NCBI GenBank assembly: GCA_905209455.1
Contig: CAJLTA010000004.1
Span: 33,006 to 97,005 of the forward strand
Source: an uncultured Collinsella sp.
GTDB taxonomy: Bacteria > Actinomycetota > Coriobacteriia > Coriobacteriales > Coriobacteriaceae
Length of the DNA stretch: 64,000 nt
Reading direction: 5' to 3'
Shown here: piece by piece, positions 1,256 through 20,206 of the stretch
Layout: every line of letters begins with the position of its first letter
Numbering within the stretch: the stretch's first letter is position 1
Notes under the pieces: generated by a model
Databases searched by the model: none
Seen by the model: only the letters and a program-made list of their open reading frames with translations
Told to the model about the DNA's origin: nothing
Translations under genes and position numbers: made by a program

Positions 1256-1531
1256 TTCGTTACAGATGAGGATAGTTGGTTGGCCGATGGACCGTCCCAA
1301 CCAATCATCTCAATCTGTAACGTCTGGACCGGTTTTTGAACCATAGCTGTTACAGATTTAGACAAACATTTCAGCCGAAAACTAACGTCTCGATCTGTAA
1401 CAACTAGACCCCGTTTTACCGAGTATTTGTTACAGATCAAGACAAACAGTTGGCAGGAAACTCAATGTCTCGTTCTGTAACATCTAGCAGCAAATATGAC
1501 CTCTAACTGTTACAGATTGAGACAATTGCCG
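1256..1531. repeat. Array of 3 tandem ~80-bp palindromic units. Each unit is bounded by 16-bp terminal inverted repeats, GTCTCGATCTGTAACA ... TGTTACAGATTGAGAC, around a 25-27 bp spacer.
   Basis: Seven alternating half-sites (gttacagat / atctgtaac) read directly: 1257, 1310, 1352, 1394, 1427, 1466, 1512. Spacers and linkers between units are loosely similar. The same unit recurs at 4965-5106. Confidence 0.85.
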
Positions 1532-1565
1532 GGGAGGGGTCCCGTCACGGCAAGACGCCCGCTCT

Positions 1566-3650
1566 CTAGATACAGAATCCGGGGATCACGCAGGTTCGTT
1601 TGTTTGGCTTGTCCGCAGGCGTTGCGTACGTAAAGGCGTCGCCGTCGTGGCCCACACGGTTTATGTAGAGCGTGCCTTCGGTCTCCGATGAGTCGGGGCT
1701 CACCGTGCGCTCCCACCAGCAGGTGTCCTTGCCCTTCCACTGACGGACCATCGCCTCGTTCGTGGAATACGGGCTCACCTTGAGCTCGCGGAAGAGTTGG
1801 TACTCCTTGCCCTCGCTGTTGTAGATGTCTGCCAGGTAGTGATAGTCCTTGGCAAACGAATCGGGCGGTTGCGTACCGCACAGCTCGACCATGGCGGGCA
1901 GCCAAAGGGTTGCGGGCAACTCGCTCAGACACGATGCACTGTTGGCTGCGCCCACATTGTTCGAGACCTTCTTGACCCCTTTAATGAGCGCGCACAACTC
2001 GTTGGGTAGCAGCTTAAGGCCGTCGCCGTTGAGCCATTCCCGCAGCTCGCAATCTGCCCAGCCGGCGCTCGGCGGTTCAGCTGCAGCGTTGCGCTCGGCA
2101 ATACCCGCATCGAACATAAACGTCAATCCGGCCTTGCCCGTCCCGTCCAGAAGCTCATCGTGGCGGATGCCCACAAGCTGCGCGCCAACCTGCAGCCCGT
2201 TGGTGAGCGTGACACGTTTGGTACACGGATAGGGGATATGCCCATCGGCATCGAGCAGGTGATAGCGCTTGGCAATCTCGCGTGCCTCGCTACGGGTCTC
2301 GGCGGCCTTAATCTTGAGCGAAATCTCCTGCAGCTGATCCCAGGTGTAGTCGCCAAGCGAACCGCGGATGCCGTCCAGGTAGTCGGGGATGCCAAAGCCA
2401 TGGGTCGCCGCCCCAACGACGCTGAGCCCCGCAACGGCTGCAACGACGCCACCGATAATAAACCGGCGGCGGGTCATGGCATCGTGTCGGGCCTGCTCCA
2501 GAATCTCTCTCGCGCGCTCGCCGGCGACGTCGACCTTAAGGTGCGTACCGGAGTCGATGTCGATTGCGGCGTCACTGCCCGCGCCCTCGCGGCCCTCGGA
2601 TTCGGCGTCGGTGAGGTATGTCGAGAGCACCTCGAGCATCTGCTGCTCGGTAGGGCGATCGCACTGCTCGACTGAGAGACCCTTCATGATGATTTGGACA
2701 AGCGCTTCATCGCCCTCGCAGCGCGGCTCGAGCGGTGCCGGCTTGGTCTTGGTCTTTACGAGATAGAACGAGCCGGTTGCAGCGGCGTCCGTCGACTCAA
2801 AGTCAAACGGTTTGCGACCGCTGTAGAGCTGGTACAAAATGCTCGAAAGCGCGTAGACATCGATTGCCGGCGAACGGCGAAGGGCCGTGATGCCTTCGAT
2901 ATCCTGCGTGAGCATTTCGGGCGCAGCGTATGCGGGCGTGGCAAAGCGCCAGATGTCGGCGCGCCGGGTGATCGTGTCGTCGCCGAGAGCCATGGTCGCG
3001 GAGCCCATGTCGATGAGGCAGGGGTCAAAGGAGCAATCGGCAATCTGCTGCTCGAGCGTTCGGCTGGTGGTGCGGAACATGATATTGGCAGGCGACAGGT
3101 CGCGATGGATGACCGGATTCACGAGGCCTTGGGTTATCAAGAGCGCACGAAGCACGGCGTTTCCGACGGCGGCGACCATCTGGGTGGTCAGCCCGCCCGA
3201 GGCGTCGTGCGGAAGCAGGGGCAGCGCCTGCTTGAGCGAGATGCCCTCGACCCACTCCATGAGGATGAGCGGGTCATCCTCACACGAGCCGTAGCCATAG
3301 ACGCGCGGAAATCCGCGCAGGTGCGAGACGGTACACAGATGACGGTACTCCTCGAACAGCGCAGCGGTGTTGGCCAGGTGCGCTGCCGATTGCTCGGCGG
3401 AGCGATCGAGGGCTTGGCCGGAAAGGATGGCATTGTCCTTGAGTAGCTTGACGGCAAAGACCTCGCCGCTCGTGTTGGTCGCGCGCAGCACGTGCCCGAT
3501 GTTGCCGTTGTTGCGGTGGGCCGTCTGGAGAATAAGCGTCATAAGCCGACGCTTGGCGTCGTCCTCGGCGCTGGGGTCGACCGCCACGGCGGTATCGAAC
3601 GTATCGAGACGGATGAGTTTGTCGCCATAGGCGCTATCGGTAGTATCCAT
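1566..3650 (-). CDS. Transmembrane Ser/Thr protein kinase with an uncharacterised ~300-aa extracytoplasmic C-terminal domain.
   Basis: Hanks kinase motifs are present: VAIK-like FAVKLL, HRDLSPANIM, DMGSA, and APE in AYAAPE. A single TM helix (RRRFIIGGVVAAVAGLSVVGA) follows. The C-terminal domain is Cys-containing (CWWERT, VIPGFCI). The likely start is the internal Met MDTTDSAYGDK at 3650; the track ORF extends to 3737. Confidence 0.85.
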   Translation of the reverse strand: MDTTDSAYGDKLIRLDTFDTAVAVDPSAEDDAKRRLMTLILQTAHRNNGNIGHVLRATNTSGEVFAVKLLKDNAILSGQALDRSAEQSAAHLANTAALFEEYRHLCTVSHLRGFPRVYGYGSCEDDPLILMEWVEGISLKQALPLLPHDASGGLTTQMVAAVGNAVLRALLITQGLVNPVIHRDLSPANIMFRTTSRTLEQQIADCSFDPCLIDMGSATMALGDDTITRRADIWRFATPAYAAPEMLTQDIEGITALRRSPAIDVYALSSILYQLYSGRKPFDFESTDAAATGSFYLVKTKTKPAPLEPRCEGDEALVQIIMKGLSVEQCDRPTEQQMLEVLSTYLTDAESEGREGAGSDAAIDIDSGTHLKVDVAGERAREILEQARHDAMTRRRFIIGGVVAAVAGLSVVGAATHGFGIPDYLDGIRGSLGDYTWDQLQEISLKIKAAETRSEAREIAKRYHLLDADGHIPYPCTKRVTLTNGLQVGAQLVGIRHDELLDGTGKAGLTFMFDAGIAERNAAAEPPSAGWADCELREWLNGDGLKLLPNELCALIKGVKKVSNNVGAANSASCLSELPATLWLPAMVELCGTQPPDSFAKDYHYLADIYNSEGKEYQLFRELKVSPYSTNEAMVRQWKGKDTCWWERTVSPDSSETEGTLYINRVGHDGDAFTYATPADKPNKRTCVIPGFCI

Positions 3651-3821
3651 GGCGTTCCTTTGTCTGGCATGGGTTGCCGCACGTATACGTGAGCAGTGCG
3701 GATATCGGTAAAGTACCATGATAGCCGCACTGCCCACGTATACCGCTGAGCATTGTCGTTTACGACGCAGAAGGTAGAAGACGAAAGACGGACGGCGACC
3801 GTCTTTCGATCGCCGTCCGCG

Positions 3822-4814
3822 CTAGTCCACAATGACAAGGAATGTCGTGTAGAGACCCAGATGGAGCCTGTCGCTGTTTTCGATTTCCACCGGGGGATAG
3901 ATCTTGCCGGGCTCGCGTTGGTCGCGCGGCGGCTCAATCACAATATCGCCGTCGCCTGCACCCGATTCGAGTACCGTGCCGTTGGTCGATCCAAGGCCTT
4001 GGGCGTACCAGTGCTCACCCTCGAGCCAAATGCGAAGATGCTCGCGCGATGCGTCGGCGCCCACATCGGTGATGCTGGGCGAGGTTTTGGGCAAAGAACC
4101 AATCACGGTGCCGTGCGGATCGCGTGTGAGGGGATGGATTTGCATGTCGGCGCAGTTGTCGGCATGGGTTCTGAGCAGACCGAGGTTGGGGGCGACGGTG
4201 CGCGGCTGCTCCAGGCTGCTCATAAAGCCACGTCCGACGGTAGTTTCGGTGGTGCCAAAGTGCTCGCCCGTCTTGCTGTCGCAAAAGCGCTCGACGGTGG
4301 CCACGCCCTGAACGGGATCGGCGAGCGCCCCCGTTGCCACAAAGAGCATAAGGTAAAGCGTGCTTTTCTCGCGCACGGCATTGCCGTCAAAGTTGTCGAT
4401 GCGATTGAGGGCATTTGCATATAGGCGGCTGTCCAGCTTGTAGCTGGCGAGAGCCGACATCATTTCGTTGGCGGCCGGACCGCGATAGTGCTCGGCGATT
4501 GCCCGATAGGCGGACTCGCCGCCGCCGAGCTTGCTGCAGATTGCCGAGGAAAGGTTGAGCGTGGTGACGGTAAAGTCGCTGTAGATGGAGGGCGCGCACT
4601 GGTCAGGCTTGCGATGGACGATGTAACGGGTGAGATACGAGCGGTTGGAAGAGCATTTCTCGAGCAGGGTACTGCCGAGATAAGAGTTTCCATTGATGAG
4701 CATTCGGGCGATCTCGAGATGTTTAAGACCGCCGAACGAGCGAATATCGTTATAGAGGACCGAGCAAGGCGTCTCTGCTGCCACGGATACCTCCTTTGAT
4801 TGCTTCCTAGCCAA
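3822..4814 (-). CDS. FHA domain-containing protein. An unknown N-terminal domain is followed by a C-terminal FHA phosphothreonine-binding domain.
   Basis: C-terminus reads VGRGFM...SREHLRIWLEGEHWYAQGLGSTNGTVLESGAG, matching the FHA signature (GR...SR.H..I......DLGSTNGT). The track start is a TTG; the true start is uncertain. Confidence 0.75.
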   Translation of the reverse strand: MARKQSKEVSVAAETPCSVLYNDIRSFGGLKHLEIARMLINGNSYLGSTLLEKCSSNRSYLTRYIVHRKPDQCAPSIYSDFTVTTLNLSSAICSKLGGGESAYRAIAEHYRGPAANEMMSALASYKLDSRLYANALNRIDNFDGNAVREKSTLYLMLFVATGALADPVQGVATVERFCDSKTGEHFGTTETTVGRGFMSSLEQPRTVAPNLGLLRTHADNCADMQIHPLTRDPHGTVIGSLPKTSPSITDVGADASREHLRIWLEGEHWYAQGLGSTNGTVLESGAGDGDIVIEPPRDQREPGKIYPPVEIENSDRLHLGLYTTFLVIVD

Positions 4815-4964
4815 TATGGCGATAGGAATTAATGGCCCCCGGTGGGCGACGTATTAAATGGCCGCGCAATATATAGCGTAACCAAAGCAACATTATAGGT
4901 CACGTGTGCGAAGTTGCAGGAAGACTGAGAGATTTGGTTTGGACTGGACGGAAATCCCCCTCTG

Positions 4965-5106
4965 TCTTGATCTATAACAATTAGGACCGATTTTACTCGG
5001 TAACTGTTACAGATTGAGACGTTTGTGAACCGTGTCGACCGTTTGTCTCGATCTGTAACACGTAGAGGAAGATTTGCCCTGTAGATGTTACAGATTGAGA
5101 CAATCA
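4965..5106. repeat. Two further copies of the ~80-bp TIR-bounded palindromic unit. Same family as 1256-1531.
   Basis: tgtcttgatctataaca...ctgttacagattgagac and gtctcgatctgtaaca...gatgttacagattgagac. Both arrays end with the motif tgttacagattgagacaat. Confidence 0.85.
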
Positions 5107-5372: not shown

Positions 5373-7628
<2,256 letters not shown>

Positions 7629-17770: not shown

Positions 17771-18826
17771 ATGCGCTCGTTTGATGTTGAGATGTCGCGC
17801 CGGGGGTTTGCCTCGGCGCTCGCCGCGGGCGCGCTGTCGCTTGCACTCGCGGGCTGTGGCGGCGGGGCTGCCGGTGCCGGGTCCGCCGCGGGCTCGGCTG
17901 CCACGGACGGCGCCGGTGCTGCTGCAGAGCCGGTCGAGGTGCACGTCGCCTCGCTCAAGGGGCCGACCTCGATTGGCCTGGTGCAGTTTATGGACCGGGC
18001 AGCCGATGGCGAGACGGACAATGAGTTCGACTTTGCGATCAATACTGCCGCCGATGAGATTGTGCCCAAGGTCATTCAGGGCGATATCGACATTGCCCTG
18101 GTGCCCGCCAACGTGGCGAGTGTGCTCTACAACAAGACCGAGGGCGCGGTGCAGGTCATCGACATCAACACGCTGGGCGTGCTGAACGTTGTGACGGGCG
18201 ACGCGAGTGTGGCCTCGTTTGGCGATCTGGCGGGCCATACCGTCTATATGACGGGCAAGGGCACCACGCCGGAGTACGTCATGAACTACCTGCTGGAGCG
18301 CGCAGGCCTGACCGGCCAGGTGACGCTCGAGTTTAAGAGCGAGCCCACCGAGGTGCTGTCGGCCCTGCTTGCCGACCCGTCCGCCGTGGGCGTGCTGCCG
18401 GAGCCGTTCAAGACCGCTGCCATCGCCAAGAGCGAAGGCAGGCTGTCGGCTCCGGTAAGCCTGACCGATGTGTGGGACGAGTTGGCAGGTGACACGGGTT
18501 CGCGCCTGCTGACGGGCGTGACCGTGGTGCGCCGCGCGTTTGCCGAGGAACATCCCGAGGCTGTGGCGGAGTTCTTGAGCTGCCATGCGGCGAGCGTTAA
18601 GGCTGTCAATGCGGCGCCGGCAGACTGGGCGCAGGCCGTGGTCGATGCCGGCATCGTGGACAACGCCAAGATCGCCGAGAAGGCGATTCCCGGGTGCATG
18701 CTCGTGTGCCAGACGGGCAAGGATATGAAGGCGGCACTTAGCGGGTATCTGCAGGTGCTGTCCGACGCGGACGCGAGCGCCGTGGGTGGTAAACTTCCGG
18801 CTGACGATTTCTACTACATGGAGTAG
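17771..18826 (+). CDS. ABC transporter substrate-binding lipoprotein, NMT1/SsuA-like family.
   Basis: Lipobox LALAGC. RR in the signal sequence (MSRRGFASAL) suggests possible Tat export. Periplasmic binding fold typical of sulfonate/nitrate/taurine binders. Confidence 0.7.
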   Translation: MRSFDVEMSRRGFASALAAGALSLALAGCGGGAAGAGSAAGSAATDGAGAAAEPVEVHVASLKGPTSIGLVQFMDRAADGETDNEFDFAINTAADEIVPKVIQGDIDIALVPANVASVLYNKTEGAVQVIDINTLGVLNVVTGDASVASFGDLAGHTVYMTGKGTTPEYVMNYLLERAGLTGQVTLEFKSEPTEVLSALLADPSAVGVLPEPFKTAAIAKSEGRLSAPVSLTDVWDELAGDTGSRLLTGVTVVRRAFAEEHPEAVAEFLSCHAASVKAVNAAPADWAQAVVDAGIVDNAKIAEKAIPGCMLVCQTGKDMKAALSGYLQVLSDADASAVGGKLPADDFYYME

Positions 18827-18829
18827 CCC

Positions 18830-20206
18830 GTGCGTGCGTTTGCTCGACAAATGACAGAGCGTATGAAGGCGGTGGCGGCAGCAGGTGCCGTCGCCGCCTT
18901 TTGGCTTACCGTGTGGGTCTTCGCGGCGGTGCTGGTGGCGCAGCCACTGATCTTGCCGGGGCCGGGTGCTGTTGCCTTGGCGCTGCTGCGCCTGGTGTGC
19001 GATGGCGGTACCTGGGCGATTTTGGTGGGCTCGGGCGCGCGGATACTGGGCGGGCTGGCGCTTGCCGCGGTGTGTGGTGGCGTGCTTGCCGGGATTTCGT
19101 CACGGTTGCGGGCGTTTGCGCGCCTGGTGGCTCCGGCACTTTCGTTTGTTAAGGCGACGCCGGTTGCCTGCGTGGTGGTCCTGCTGCTTATTTGGTTGGG
19201 ATCGGCGCGCGTGAGCATCGCCGCGGTCTTTTTGATGGCGCTGCCGGGCGTGTATTTTTCGCTGGCCGAGGGCTTGGCACAGGTGAATAAACCGCTGGAG
19301 CAGATGTTCCGTCTGCATGGCGTGCGCGGCTGGCGCCTGTTTTGCGCCCATACCTGGCGCGAAGTCCTGCCGTTTGTGCTTTCGTGCGCCCGCGCCGTGA
19401 TCGGCATGAGCTGGAAGGCCGGTGTGGCAGCCGAGCTGATCGGCATGGCGGTGGGCACCGTGGGTGAGCGCATCTATCAGGCAAAGCTTTTGATTGAGAC
19501 GGCTGACCTGCTGGCGTGGACCGTGCTGGTCGTTGCCGCCTCGTGGGCATGTGAGCGCGTGCTGGTGTGGCTGCTGCGGGTTTCGGGACCCGTGGCGTGG
19601 CACGCGGCCGTGCGGGCGCATGGGCATGGACTGCGCGGGCGTGTGGGGGCTGCGAGCGATGGCGCTGCAGCGGAGCTTGCGCTTGCCGTGGGCGATCGCG
19701 CGCCCTGGGCGCCGGCGCTGGACGGTCTGGTGCTCAATGTGCCCGCGGGTGGGCGCATCTGTGTGATGGGTGCTTCGGGCATGGGCAAGTCGACGCTGCT
19801 TTCGTTGGCAGCGGGGGAGTGCTCGCCGTGCTCGATGGTGTTTCAGGATGCACGCTTGGCCGAGTCCGCCTCGGCGCTGGATAACGTGCTGGTGTGCGCC
19901 GATGCGCGTGTGGATGCTTCGAGCGCCGCGGCATTGCTGCGCCTACTGGTGCCGGGAATCGATGTGCATGCGCGCGTGGTCGAGCTTTCGGGCGGGCAGC
20001 GCCACCGTGTCGAGATTGCCCGCGCCCTGCTGTGCCCGGGCGGCGCGGTGATTCTTGACGAGCCCTTTACCGGTTTAGATACCGCTGCGCGCGACGCATG
20101 CGCCGAGGTCGTGCTCGACCTGCTCGACGGCCGCATGCTCCTGCTTGCCACACACGACGCCTCCGACGTTCAAGCCCTCGATATCTCGGACATCATCACG
20201 CTCTAA
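18830..20206 (+). CDS. ABC transporter permease (SsuC/TauC-like) fused to a short ATPase domain.
   Basis: Six to seven TM helices, then Walker A GASGMGKST, signature LSGGQRHRVEIARAL and Walker B ILDEPFTGLD. Confidence 0.75.
   Translation: MRAFARQMTERMKAVAAAGAVAAFWLTVWVFAAVLVAQPLILPGPGAVALALLRLVCDGGTWAILVGSGARILGGLALAAVCGGVLAGISSRLRAFARLVAPALSFVKATPVACVVVLLLIWLGSARVSIAAVFLMALPGVYFSLAEGLAQVNKPLEQMFRLHGVRGWRLFCAHTWREVLPFVLSCARAVIGMSWKAGVAAELIGMAVGTVGERIYQAKLLIETADLLAWTVLVVAASWACERVLVWLLRVSGPVAWHAAVRAHGHGLRGRVGAASDGAAAELALAVGDRAPWAPALDGLVLNVPAGGRICVMGASGMGKSTLLSLAAGECSPCSMVFQDARLAESASALDNVLVCADARVDASSAAALLRLLVPGIDVHARVVELSGGQRHRVEIARALLCPGGAVILDEPFTGLDTAARDACAEVVLDLLDGRMLLLATHDASDVQALDISDIITL

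Follow-up and report, generated by a model that had tools for sequence, protein, structure and literature searches.

A 64-kb stretch of an uncultured Collinsella genome (contig CAJLTA010000004.1; this whole stretch is referred to as the window) contains 10 copies of a 17-nt site with the consensus TGTTACAGATYGAGACA, which alternate strictly in orientation and are split over two arrays on either side of a Ser/Thr kinase gene and a gene encoding an FHA domain protein. Sites were defined by at most three mismatches to TGTTACAGATTGAGACA, for which 0.01 occurrences are expected by chance in a 64-kb window, and the 64 kb hold no match at this threshold besides the 10 array sites. The arrays and the genes they enclose are as follows.

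1306..1524, array 1: three 59-bp units (1306-1364, 1386-1444 and 1466-1524) with linkers of 21 bp
Sites of array 1, matching TGTTACAGATTGAGACA: 1306-1322 (-), 1348-1364 (+), 1386-1402 (-), 1428-1444 (+), 1466-1482 (-), 1508-1524 (+)
4963..5102, array 2: two 59-bp units (4963-5021 and 5044-5102) with a linker of 22 bp
Sites of array 2, matching TGTTACAGATTGAGACA: 4963-4979 (-), 5005-5021 (+), 5044-5060 (-), 5086-5102 (+)
1258..1274, + strand: degenerate half-site CGTTACAGATGAGGATA, 48 bp (a non-standard distance) before the first full site
1566..3650, - strand: Ser/Thr kinase of 694 aa with a Pkinase domain, a transmembrane segment and a DUF6273 ectodomain, enclosed by the arrays
3822..4784, - strand: 320-aa protein with a C-terminal FHA domain, enclosed by the arrays

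Each 59-bp unit consists of an arm in minus orientation, a 25-bp spacer with a central A/T tract and an arm in plus orientation, and start-to-start distances are 42 bp within a unit and 38 or 39 bp between units, with a period of 80-81 bp. Array 1 lies between the stop codon of the kinase gene and the promoter of copA, and array 2 in the divergent region between the FHA gene and a DEAD-box helicase gene. A preliminary description, made from the sequence of the window alone, had reported two repeat arrays around the kinase/FHA genes, and its main observations hold: the arrays are real, with 10 sites in five units, they enclose exactly the FHA and the Pkinase/DUF6273 genes, the half-sites lie 42 bp apart in all window units, and both arrays share an end sequence, the 19-mer tgttacagattgagacaat (1508-1526 in array 1, 5086-5104 in array 2). 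The conserved arm is 17 nt long and not 16 bp as given there, and of a first array said to start at 1256 the units at 1306-1524 stand, while 1256-1305 holds only the degenerate half-site. The motif was also described as absent from the rest of the window, which is true, and the contig carries more of it: in L001, the longest of the gut-metagenome contigs encoding an identical kinase, two further arrays lie at 17851-17990 and 19094-19393, 4.2-5.7 kb past the left end of the window.

We scanned one genome per species with the pattern ATCTGTAAC-N20-35-GTTACAGAT, which matched at least 120 stretches, nearly all of them from Collinsella; the genome and metagenome samples were both ascertained by exact patterns, and the scan counts given here and below are those among the matches listed. 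The 117 usable 8-kb blocks contain 142 arrays with 710 sites, at 2-15 sites per array and most commonly 4 or 6. Open reading frame (ORF) calls and protein clustering distinguish at least 53 flanking-gene contexts (Chao1 ~87), and the arrays are set in 42 convergent, 46 tandem and 35 divergent intergenic regions. The neighbouring genes are ordinary ones and unrelated to each other (dxs, tuf, prfC, clpB, glgP, glmS, murT, thiD, luxS, coaX, gltBD, mntH, sugar operons of the LacI/PTS/GH1 kind and others), so the repeat is neither kinase-specific nor a regulon, an idea that we discarded as these genes have no common theme. With the same arrays adjoining all of them, the tie to the kinase/FHA module implied by the preliminary description is not supported. 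Both arrays of the window belong to a family of intergenic arrays that is specific to Collinsella.

This family is low-copy, with roughly 15-25 arrays per genome. As a reference we used the first 630 kb of the C. aerofaciens TSDC17.2-1.1 record NZ_OY725717.1 (899,693 bp, from PLSDB), a record labelled as a plasmid ("plasmid 6") but carrying ribosomal-protein operons, rpoBC, dnaE, recA, ftsK and tuf, and hence a piece of chromosome. The 630 kb contain only eight arrays, six of which lie within 20 kb (402.7-422.7 kb) that are the orthologue of the window locus; of the other two, one lies at 510.9 kb (RluA/DeoR) and one at 576.9 kb (tuf / HTH_17 protein). The order in this hot spot is DEAD-box helicase gene, array, FHA and kinase genes, array, copA, copZ, csoR, a hypothetical gene and an amidohydrolase gene, array, c6, array, c3, gltD and gltB, array, Nramp gene, array. 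Its centre is the gene that we call c6, single-copy in the 630 kb.

412,152-413,228 of NZ_OY725717.1: c6, 356 aa, hot-spot centre (WP_148332043.1)
17998-19068 of L001: c6, ~4.3-5.4 kb to the left of the window

The arrays nearest c6 in NZ_OY725717.1 have 4 and 8 sites and include the largest array. In all 13 species blocks with c6 among the matches listed, the gene has an unchanged locus and orientation and arrays on its flanks, and in one species without c6 (L041) a single unit is left between the same neighbours. The hot-spot region supplies 35 of the 117 randomly sampled blocks and 253 of the 710 sites; about one third of all copies lie in <1% of the chromosome, within roughly 10 kb of c6. 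The preliminary description had named a dispersed high-copy repeat as the outcome that would make the finding generic. This outcome is only half realised: the repeat is dispersed, yet its copies are few and cluster strongly in the 20 kb that contain this locus, a region centred on c6 and not on the kinase.

The hot spot has no GC-skew switch, no canonical parS and no par or rep genes nearby. An iteron- or centromere-like array, also proposed in the preliminary description, is at odds with the dozens of chromosomal loci, and plasmid iterons and centromeres (sopC, parC, parS) were rejected given these dozens of chromosomal contexts with no par/rep genes nearby. With one inserted base allowed, 12 of 16 positions agree between parS and the 17-mer, a resemblance that we deemed coincidental. 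The hot-spot array downstream of the Nramp gene is a half unit, the rest of which was replaced by an insertion sequence (IS) with an IS200/IS605 tnpA gene (422698-423580, L167), leaving one arm and the spacer. An identical copy at 533.4 kb of NZ_OY725717.1 has no arrays nearby, and we rejected this tnpA as a REP (repetitive extragenic palindromic)-associated tyrosine transposase (RAYT), since it is multi-copy and has no flanking arrays.

The anatomy of the repeat was analyzed over 774 sites of the Collinsella family, taken from the matches listed. The distance from a minus to a plus site is 42 in 353 of 355 cases, and from a plus to a minus site it is 38 (134 cases) or 39 (89 cases). Arm positions 1-10 and 13-15 are at least 96% conserved, position 1 excepted (93%), the variable positions being 11 (C/T), 12, 16 and 17. 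The 25-bp spacer is kept in composition only, with a central AAA or TTT (~94%), G+C-rich runs on either side and a CTA three bases ahead of each arm, and each arm is bordered on its outer side by an AA or TT dinucleotide. Comparing orthologous unit pairs gives divergences of 1.9% for the 13 core positions, 14% for the four variable positions and 26% for the linkers. Orthologous arrays differ through insertion or deletion of whole 80-bp units, and in one of them a spacer has been converted to its neighbour; some spacers are recognisably related between loci, and whole units therefore share descent.

The arms do not covary: variable positions 11, 12 and 16 are statistically independent between left and right arm, and complementarity summed over 29 symmetric pairs was 18.49, compared with 19.78 +/- 0.10 for shuffled partners, 500 of 500 shuffles reaching or exceeding the observed value. 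The self-complementarity of spacers does not exceed that of chimeric spacers (mean fold energy -3.37 vs -4.31 kcal/mol), and the good DNA fold in silico (z = -6.6) reflects only the repeated arms. With no arm covariation and no extra self-complementarity of the spacers, an RNA or DNA hairpin was rejected as the selected unit; an Rfam search of the repeat gave chance-level matches only, and a search of a phage collection gave nothing. There is no target-site duplication, the flanking AA/TT being independent on each side (101 direct vs 108 inverted) with 0 direct matches at 4 nt, and no unit polarity, A-tract orientation being near random within arrays (115 same vs 83 opposite). A 10-bp helical phasing of A/T steps, suspected from the sequence logo, was likewise dismissed, as the periodogram contains only harmonics of 80 bp and no distinct peak at 10-10.5 bp. 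Because hairpin covariation and target-site duplication are absent and the core changes much more slowly than the linkers, the arms and their spacing are constrained as sequence and not as a hairpin, which points to a protein reading duplex DNA. This type of constraint therefore counts against hairpins of the REPIN type (paired REPs forming a hairpin), miniature inverted-repeat transposable elements (MITEs) and structured RNA. The preliminary description had likened the arrays to binding sites of a protein or to a mobile palindrome; this likeness stands, and the MITE form fails, given the missing target-site duplication and the tandem register of the units.

Searches with the c6 sequence against Pfam, NCBIfam, PADLOC and PDB gave no match, nor was there one to Pfam DUF559 at E <= 0.01, and every close homologue is a "hypothetical protein" of Collinsella. 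When 1.84 billion representative proteins were searched with a profile, 4005 clusters scored at E <= 1e-3, of which 399 reached E <= 1e-30; members of this family align over their full length (~320-360 aa), and Pfam matches were absent in 10 of 10 tested. In the AlphaFold2 model of c6 (pLDDT 90.7), the predicted structure has an N-terminal AbiEi-type winged-helix fold and a Vsr-type fold with conserved acidic and lysine residues, and the model reads as a fusion of an AbiEi-like winged-helix DNA-binding module with a Vsr/DUF559-like PD-(D/E)XK nuclease. Eleven residues are invariant in an alignment of 80 diverse homologues (D184, E230, S231, R234, G241, D264, E278, K284, E302, R305 and R318), and D264...E278-x-D280-G-x2-K284 reads as a PD-(D/E)XK motif with catalytic-type residues. 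Monomers of AbiEi, which has a winged-helix fold, bind cooperatively to two inverted repeats and bend the DNA. In the literature available to us we found no work linking AbiEi-like, DUF559 or Vsr-like proteins to repeat arrays, and no description of the motif or of this Collinsella repeat.

We then compared the 500 bp upstream with the 500 bp downstream of distant c6-family genes (32-57% identical to c6); the E values of such short BLAST comparisons are approximate. At the loci of representative proteins, flanking repeats were shared in 6 of 7 testable cases, against 1 of 15 neighbouring genes, the six positives having E values of 3e-3, 3e-3, 2e-4, 5e-5, 2e-20 and 6e-20, the last two for an 85-nt direct repeat and a 65-nt inverted repeat, respectively. 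At metagenome loci (80 among the matches listed, in 15 clusters at 80% identity), 56 of 74 testable loci were positive, against 6 of 103 control genes. Because many of these loci are redundant, we also counted by lineage: repeats on both sides are found in 13 of 22 family lineages compared with 7 of 118 controls (Fisher p = 3e-8). The motifs are lineage-specific, and the architecture recurs. In the L199 type (46 loci among the matches listed), GGGATGCACTTTCC occurs in ~10 copies upstream and 15 downstream, alternating at spacings of 32/30 with a period of 62, and its density reaches 8.5 per kb up to 0.75 kb from the gene, drops to 0.2-0.5 per kb farther away and is zero inside the gene. L264 has an alternating array with a period of ~80 and an arm, TCTCAATCTGCAAAT, that resembles the Collinsella arm, while L260, L186 and L182 have one palindromic unit per side, with a T-tract in the spacer.

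Collinsella itself offers further cases. A paralogue 35% identical to c6, here c6', has GAGCGTGGAWAATC repeats on both sides, which is also the motif of the 16-locus L255 cluster (among the matches listed), and GGGAYGCNNTTTCC, the motif of a third paralogue type (L199), is present at several places in the C. aerofaciens record and in Collinsella blocks. Judging from these flanks, Collinsella holds at least three paralogues, each flanked by a repeat family of its own, and no fewer than two of the families occur elsewhere too. Another genome, GCA_965336015.1, has at least two paralogues of the c6 family, which belong to different clusters at 50% identity (L184 and L186); L186 is flanked by the 65-nt inverted repeat, and L184 has no detectable flanking repeat.

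Based on the spatial association and on the predicted fold, we consider it probable that the arrays are the cognate duplex-DNA recognition sites of c6, a predicted nuclease. In this model, c6 monomers would bind the inverted arms, one per arm, 42 bp apart across a bendable central A-tract, and the nuclease activity would maintain and resize the arrays through break repair, gene conversion or a transposition-like step. The nuclease would also occasionally seed new arrays, preferentially in cis, and the kinase/FHA genes would be bracketed only through their location inside the c6 hot spot. A wider claim, that the c6 family is a previously unrecognised class of repeat-associated nucleases that read a lineage-specific duplex motif and create, resize and spread arrays, with the window arrays as one product, is plausible, although we give it somewhat less than an even chance.

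Several points weigh against recognition by c6. The link between gene and arrays consists of spatial association and fold inference, 9 of the 22 family lineages have no shared flanking repeats within 500 bp, and about two thirds of the copies are far from c6. Other genes are bracketed by two arrays too (kinase/FHA, mntH, an LPXTG protein gene, an AAA ATPase gene), and segmental duplication followed by divergence could in principle yield paralogue-specific flanks. In addition, the counts of the genome scan cover only the matches listed (at least 120 stretches), and genes in the fetched loci were called with our own crude heuristics of length and third-position G+C content (GC3).

One alternative is that c6 and its flanking arrays form a selfish element, either similar to a homing endonuclease or a one-gene transposon whose ends carry several binding sites, the other arrays being targets or solo ends. 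We regard this as unlikely, since c6 keeps one locus and one orientation in 13 of 13 species blocks, is single-copy in 630 kb and is accompanied by no target-site duplication and no trace of recent movement. Quite improbable, too, is a generic repeat similar to REPs or to bacterial interspersed mosaic elements (BIMEs) without a partner protein, for which proximity to c6 would reflect hitch-hiking or local duplication, and arm conservation would reflect gene conversion. The at least 53 contexts (Chao1 ~87) in convergent, tandem and divergent regions (42/46/35) agree with it, as do the unit number varying by species and the alternating orientation with two alternating linker lengths, as in E. 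coli BIMEs; but a gene with flanking repeats recurs in many lineages with different motifs, three times within Collinsella, and the repeat is low-copy, with about one third of its copies in <1% of the genome.

That the sites are operators or looping sites of a transcription factor for kinase/FHA, copA and neighbouring genes appears very unlikely. Five of the six hot-spot arrays are in promoter-containing regions and the 42-bp spacing would place paired sites on one helix face, yet 42 of 123 arrays among the matches listed are flanked by convergent genes and have no promoter beside them, no functional theme unites the genes next to arrays, and copA has a CsoR-type box of its own. The preliminary description was right in judging a half-site distance of 42 bp unlike a classical operator. 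We give hardly any credence to REPIN- or MITE-like hairpins mobilised by an HUH (RAYT, IS200-type) or DDE transposase, or to a structured RNA, an explanation already largely refuted. The 17-nt inverted arms fold well in silico (z = -6.6) and C. aerofaciens has IS200/IS605 tnpA copies, one of them abutting an array remnant, whereas compensatory changes in the arms, target-site duplications and a matching Rfam family are all missing, the tnpA is multi-copy with no arrays near its other copy, and arrays lie on either side of genes in every orientation.

In its logic, the closest known system is RAYT/REPIN. RAYT genes are single-copy and vertically inherited, and the palindromic doublets that are cognate to them both flank the gene and are dispersed, each paralogue having a family of its own (PMC5581495; 10.1101/2021.07.10.451892). 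Similarly, c6 is single-copy, vertically inherited and flanked by its own repeats, which are also dispersed intergenically as doublets of inverted arms, and three Collinsella paralogues have three distinct repeat families. In contrast to RAYT, c6 is a predicted AbiEi-like winged-helix protein with a Vsr-like nuclease, and the only Y1 (HUH) transposase gene seen, the multi-copy tnpA, is not flanked by arrays. Unlike REPINs, the Collinsella arms have no hairpin covariation, which makes single-stranded hairpin recognition unlikely, and the repeat has no GTAG/CGTC tag and is limited to ~15-25 arrays per genome, strongly concentrated near the gene. Membership thus fails on the Y1 transposase, the hairpin covariation and the GTAG/CGTC tag.

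The tandem units, alternating orientation, alternating linker types and variable unit number are those of an E. coli BIME. BIME-1/RIP has a central bend site between two inverted REPs, to which the central A-tract of the Collinsella unit is a parallel, and the palindromic unit of E. coli, an imperfect palindrome of 20-40 nt, is itself a stem-loop. Unlike it, TGTTACAGATYGAGACA is asymmetric and not self-complementary, with only 5 of 8 mirrored positions pairing by inspection, and the linkers are kept in composition only. Compared with AbiEi of type IV toxin-antitoxin systems, c6 has no AbiEii toxin partner and carries a nuclease domain, and the sites associated with it, unlike an AbiEi operator, occur as arrays on either side of the gene as well as at distant loci. 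It also differs from the Vsr-fold homing endonuclease I-Bth0305I and from DUF559 in lying outside any intron or intein and in its motif, E-x-D-G-x-x-K. Mycobacterial interspersed repetitive units (MIRUs, of the variable number tandem repeat class, VNTR) are, as here, actinobacterial intergenic tandem repeats of 40-100 bp with variable unit number, but they are direct repeats without inverted arms; we know of no gene associated with MIRUs and of no sequence relationship to the Collinsella repeat. No autonomous IS with the same terminal repeats was found in ~1.8 Mb of fetched Collinsella sequence. Integron attC sites, which have RYYYAAC ... GTTRRRY at their outer ends and go with an intI integrase, do not fit: AAC/GTT lie at the inner ends of the arms, and no integrase gene adjoins the arrays in host loci.

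The kinase and FHA genes are enclosed by arrays yet outside the repeat system; the module is not specially marked, and for the original finding the result is mostly deflationary. Its left neighbour beyond the arrays is copA (start at 1154) and its right neighbour the DEAD-box helicase gene (5373-7625). The kinase is annotated in NZ_OY725717.1 as "DUF6273 domain-containing protein". Its kinase domain matches the PADLOC kinase models mad6 (E = 4e-25) and PD-T4-6, a similarity at the domain level only, and no further defence genes adjoin it (1566-3650). The kinase leader contains a 24-nt inverted repeat (3683-3743; 92% complementary, 13-nt loop), and a strong terminator-like hairpin lies directly past the FHA stop codon (3788-3820). 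Because these two elements separate the genes, FHA and kinase may not form a simple operon. Directly upstream of copA, a GC-rich palindrome, ATACCCCCTGGGGGTGT (1213-1229), resembles a CsoR-type copper operator, and on the same contig copA-copZ are followed by a csoR homologue (PF02583; L001 15346-15618).

Elsewhere in Collinsella, accessory genes between neighbouring arrays vary by species, as seen at clpB (L013, L039, L095), copA (L058/L064) and luxS-DUF4867/GH1 (L040/L049/L055); among them are genes for small membrane proteins, for an LPXTG surface protein of 1,115 aa and for an AAA ATPase, and in one inter-array case two accessory genes are swapped in order without inversion. Arrays may thus mark sites of gene gain, loss or shuffling. 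Collinsella prophages lie directly beside arrays at L128, L134, L143, L145 and L148 (IMG/VR) and at L146, where a prophage with a large serine recombinase abuts the array adjoining murT. A prophage type with a 375-aa tyrosine integrase occupies the GDSL-lipase/thiD locus, with the junction ...cttaatactgccaca ~75 bp past the array, and L133 is a second locus with a similar junction. As this junction is ~75 bp beyond the array, the arrays were rejected as the prophage attachment site. A separate element of ~52 bp, gcccagataaaacctgccaaaataaacctgtccctttttggtagg, is present or absent by species in the dxs-SBP intergenic region (L006/L042/L065) and recurs at L133 near the prophage junction; it is probably another small Collinsella repeat.

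For practical purposes, the variation in unit number is useful for strain typing, and the arrays break metagenome assemblies and adjoin prophage and IS insertion points. To our knowledge, dispersed palindromic repeats with a cognate domesticated enzyme are so far essentially limited to RAYT/REPIN. If the reading proposed here for the c6 family is true, the family would be a second, mechanistically independent counterpart of these systems, and if unrelated winged-helix and Vsr-like nucleases play the RAYT role, repeat-enzyme partnerships would have arisen more than once. It would also assign a function to a large unannotated protein family and explain the intergenic arrays of Collinsella, an abundant genus of the human gut.

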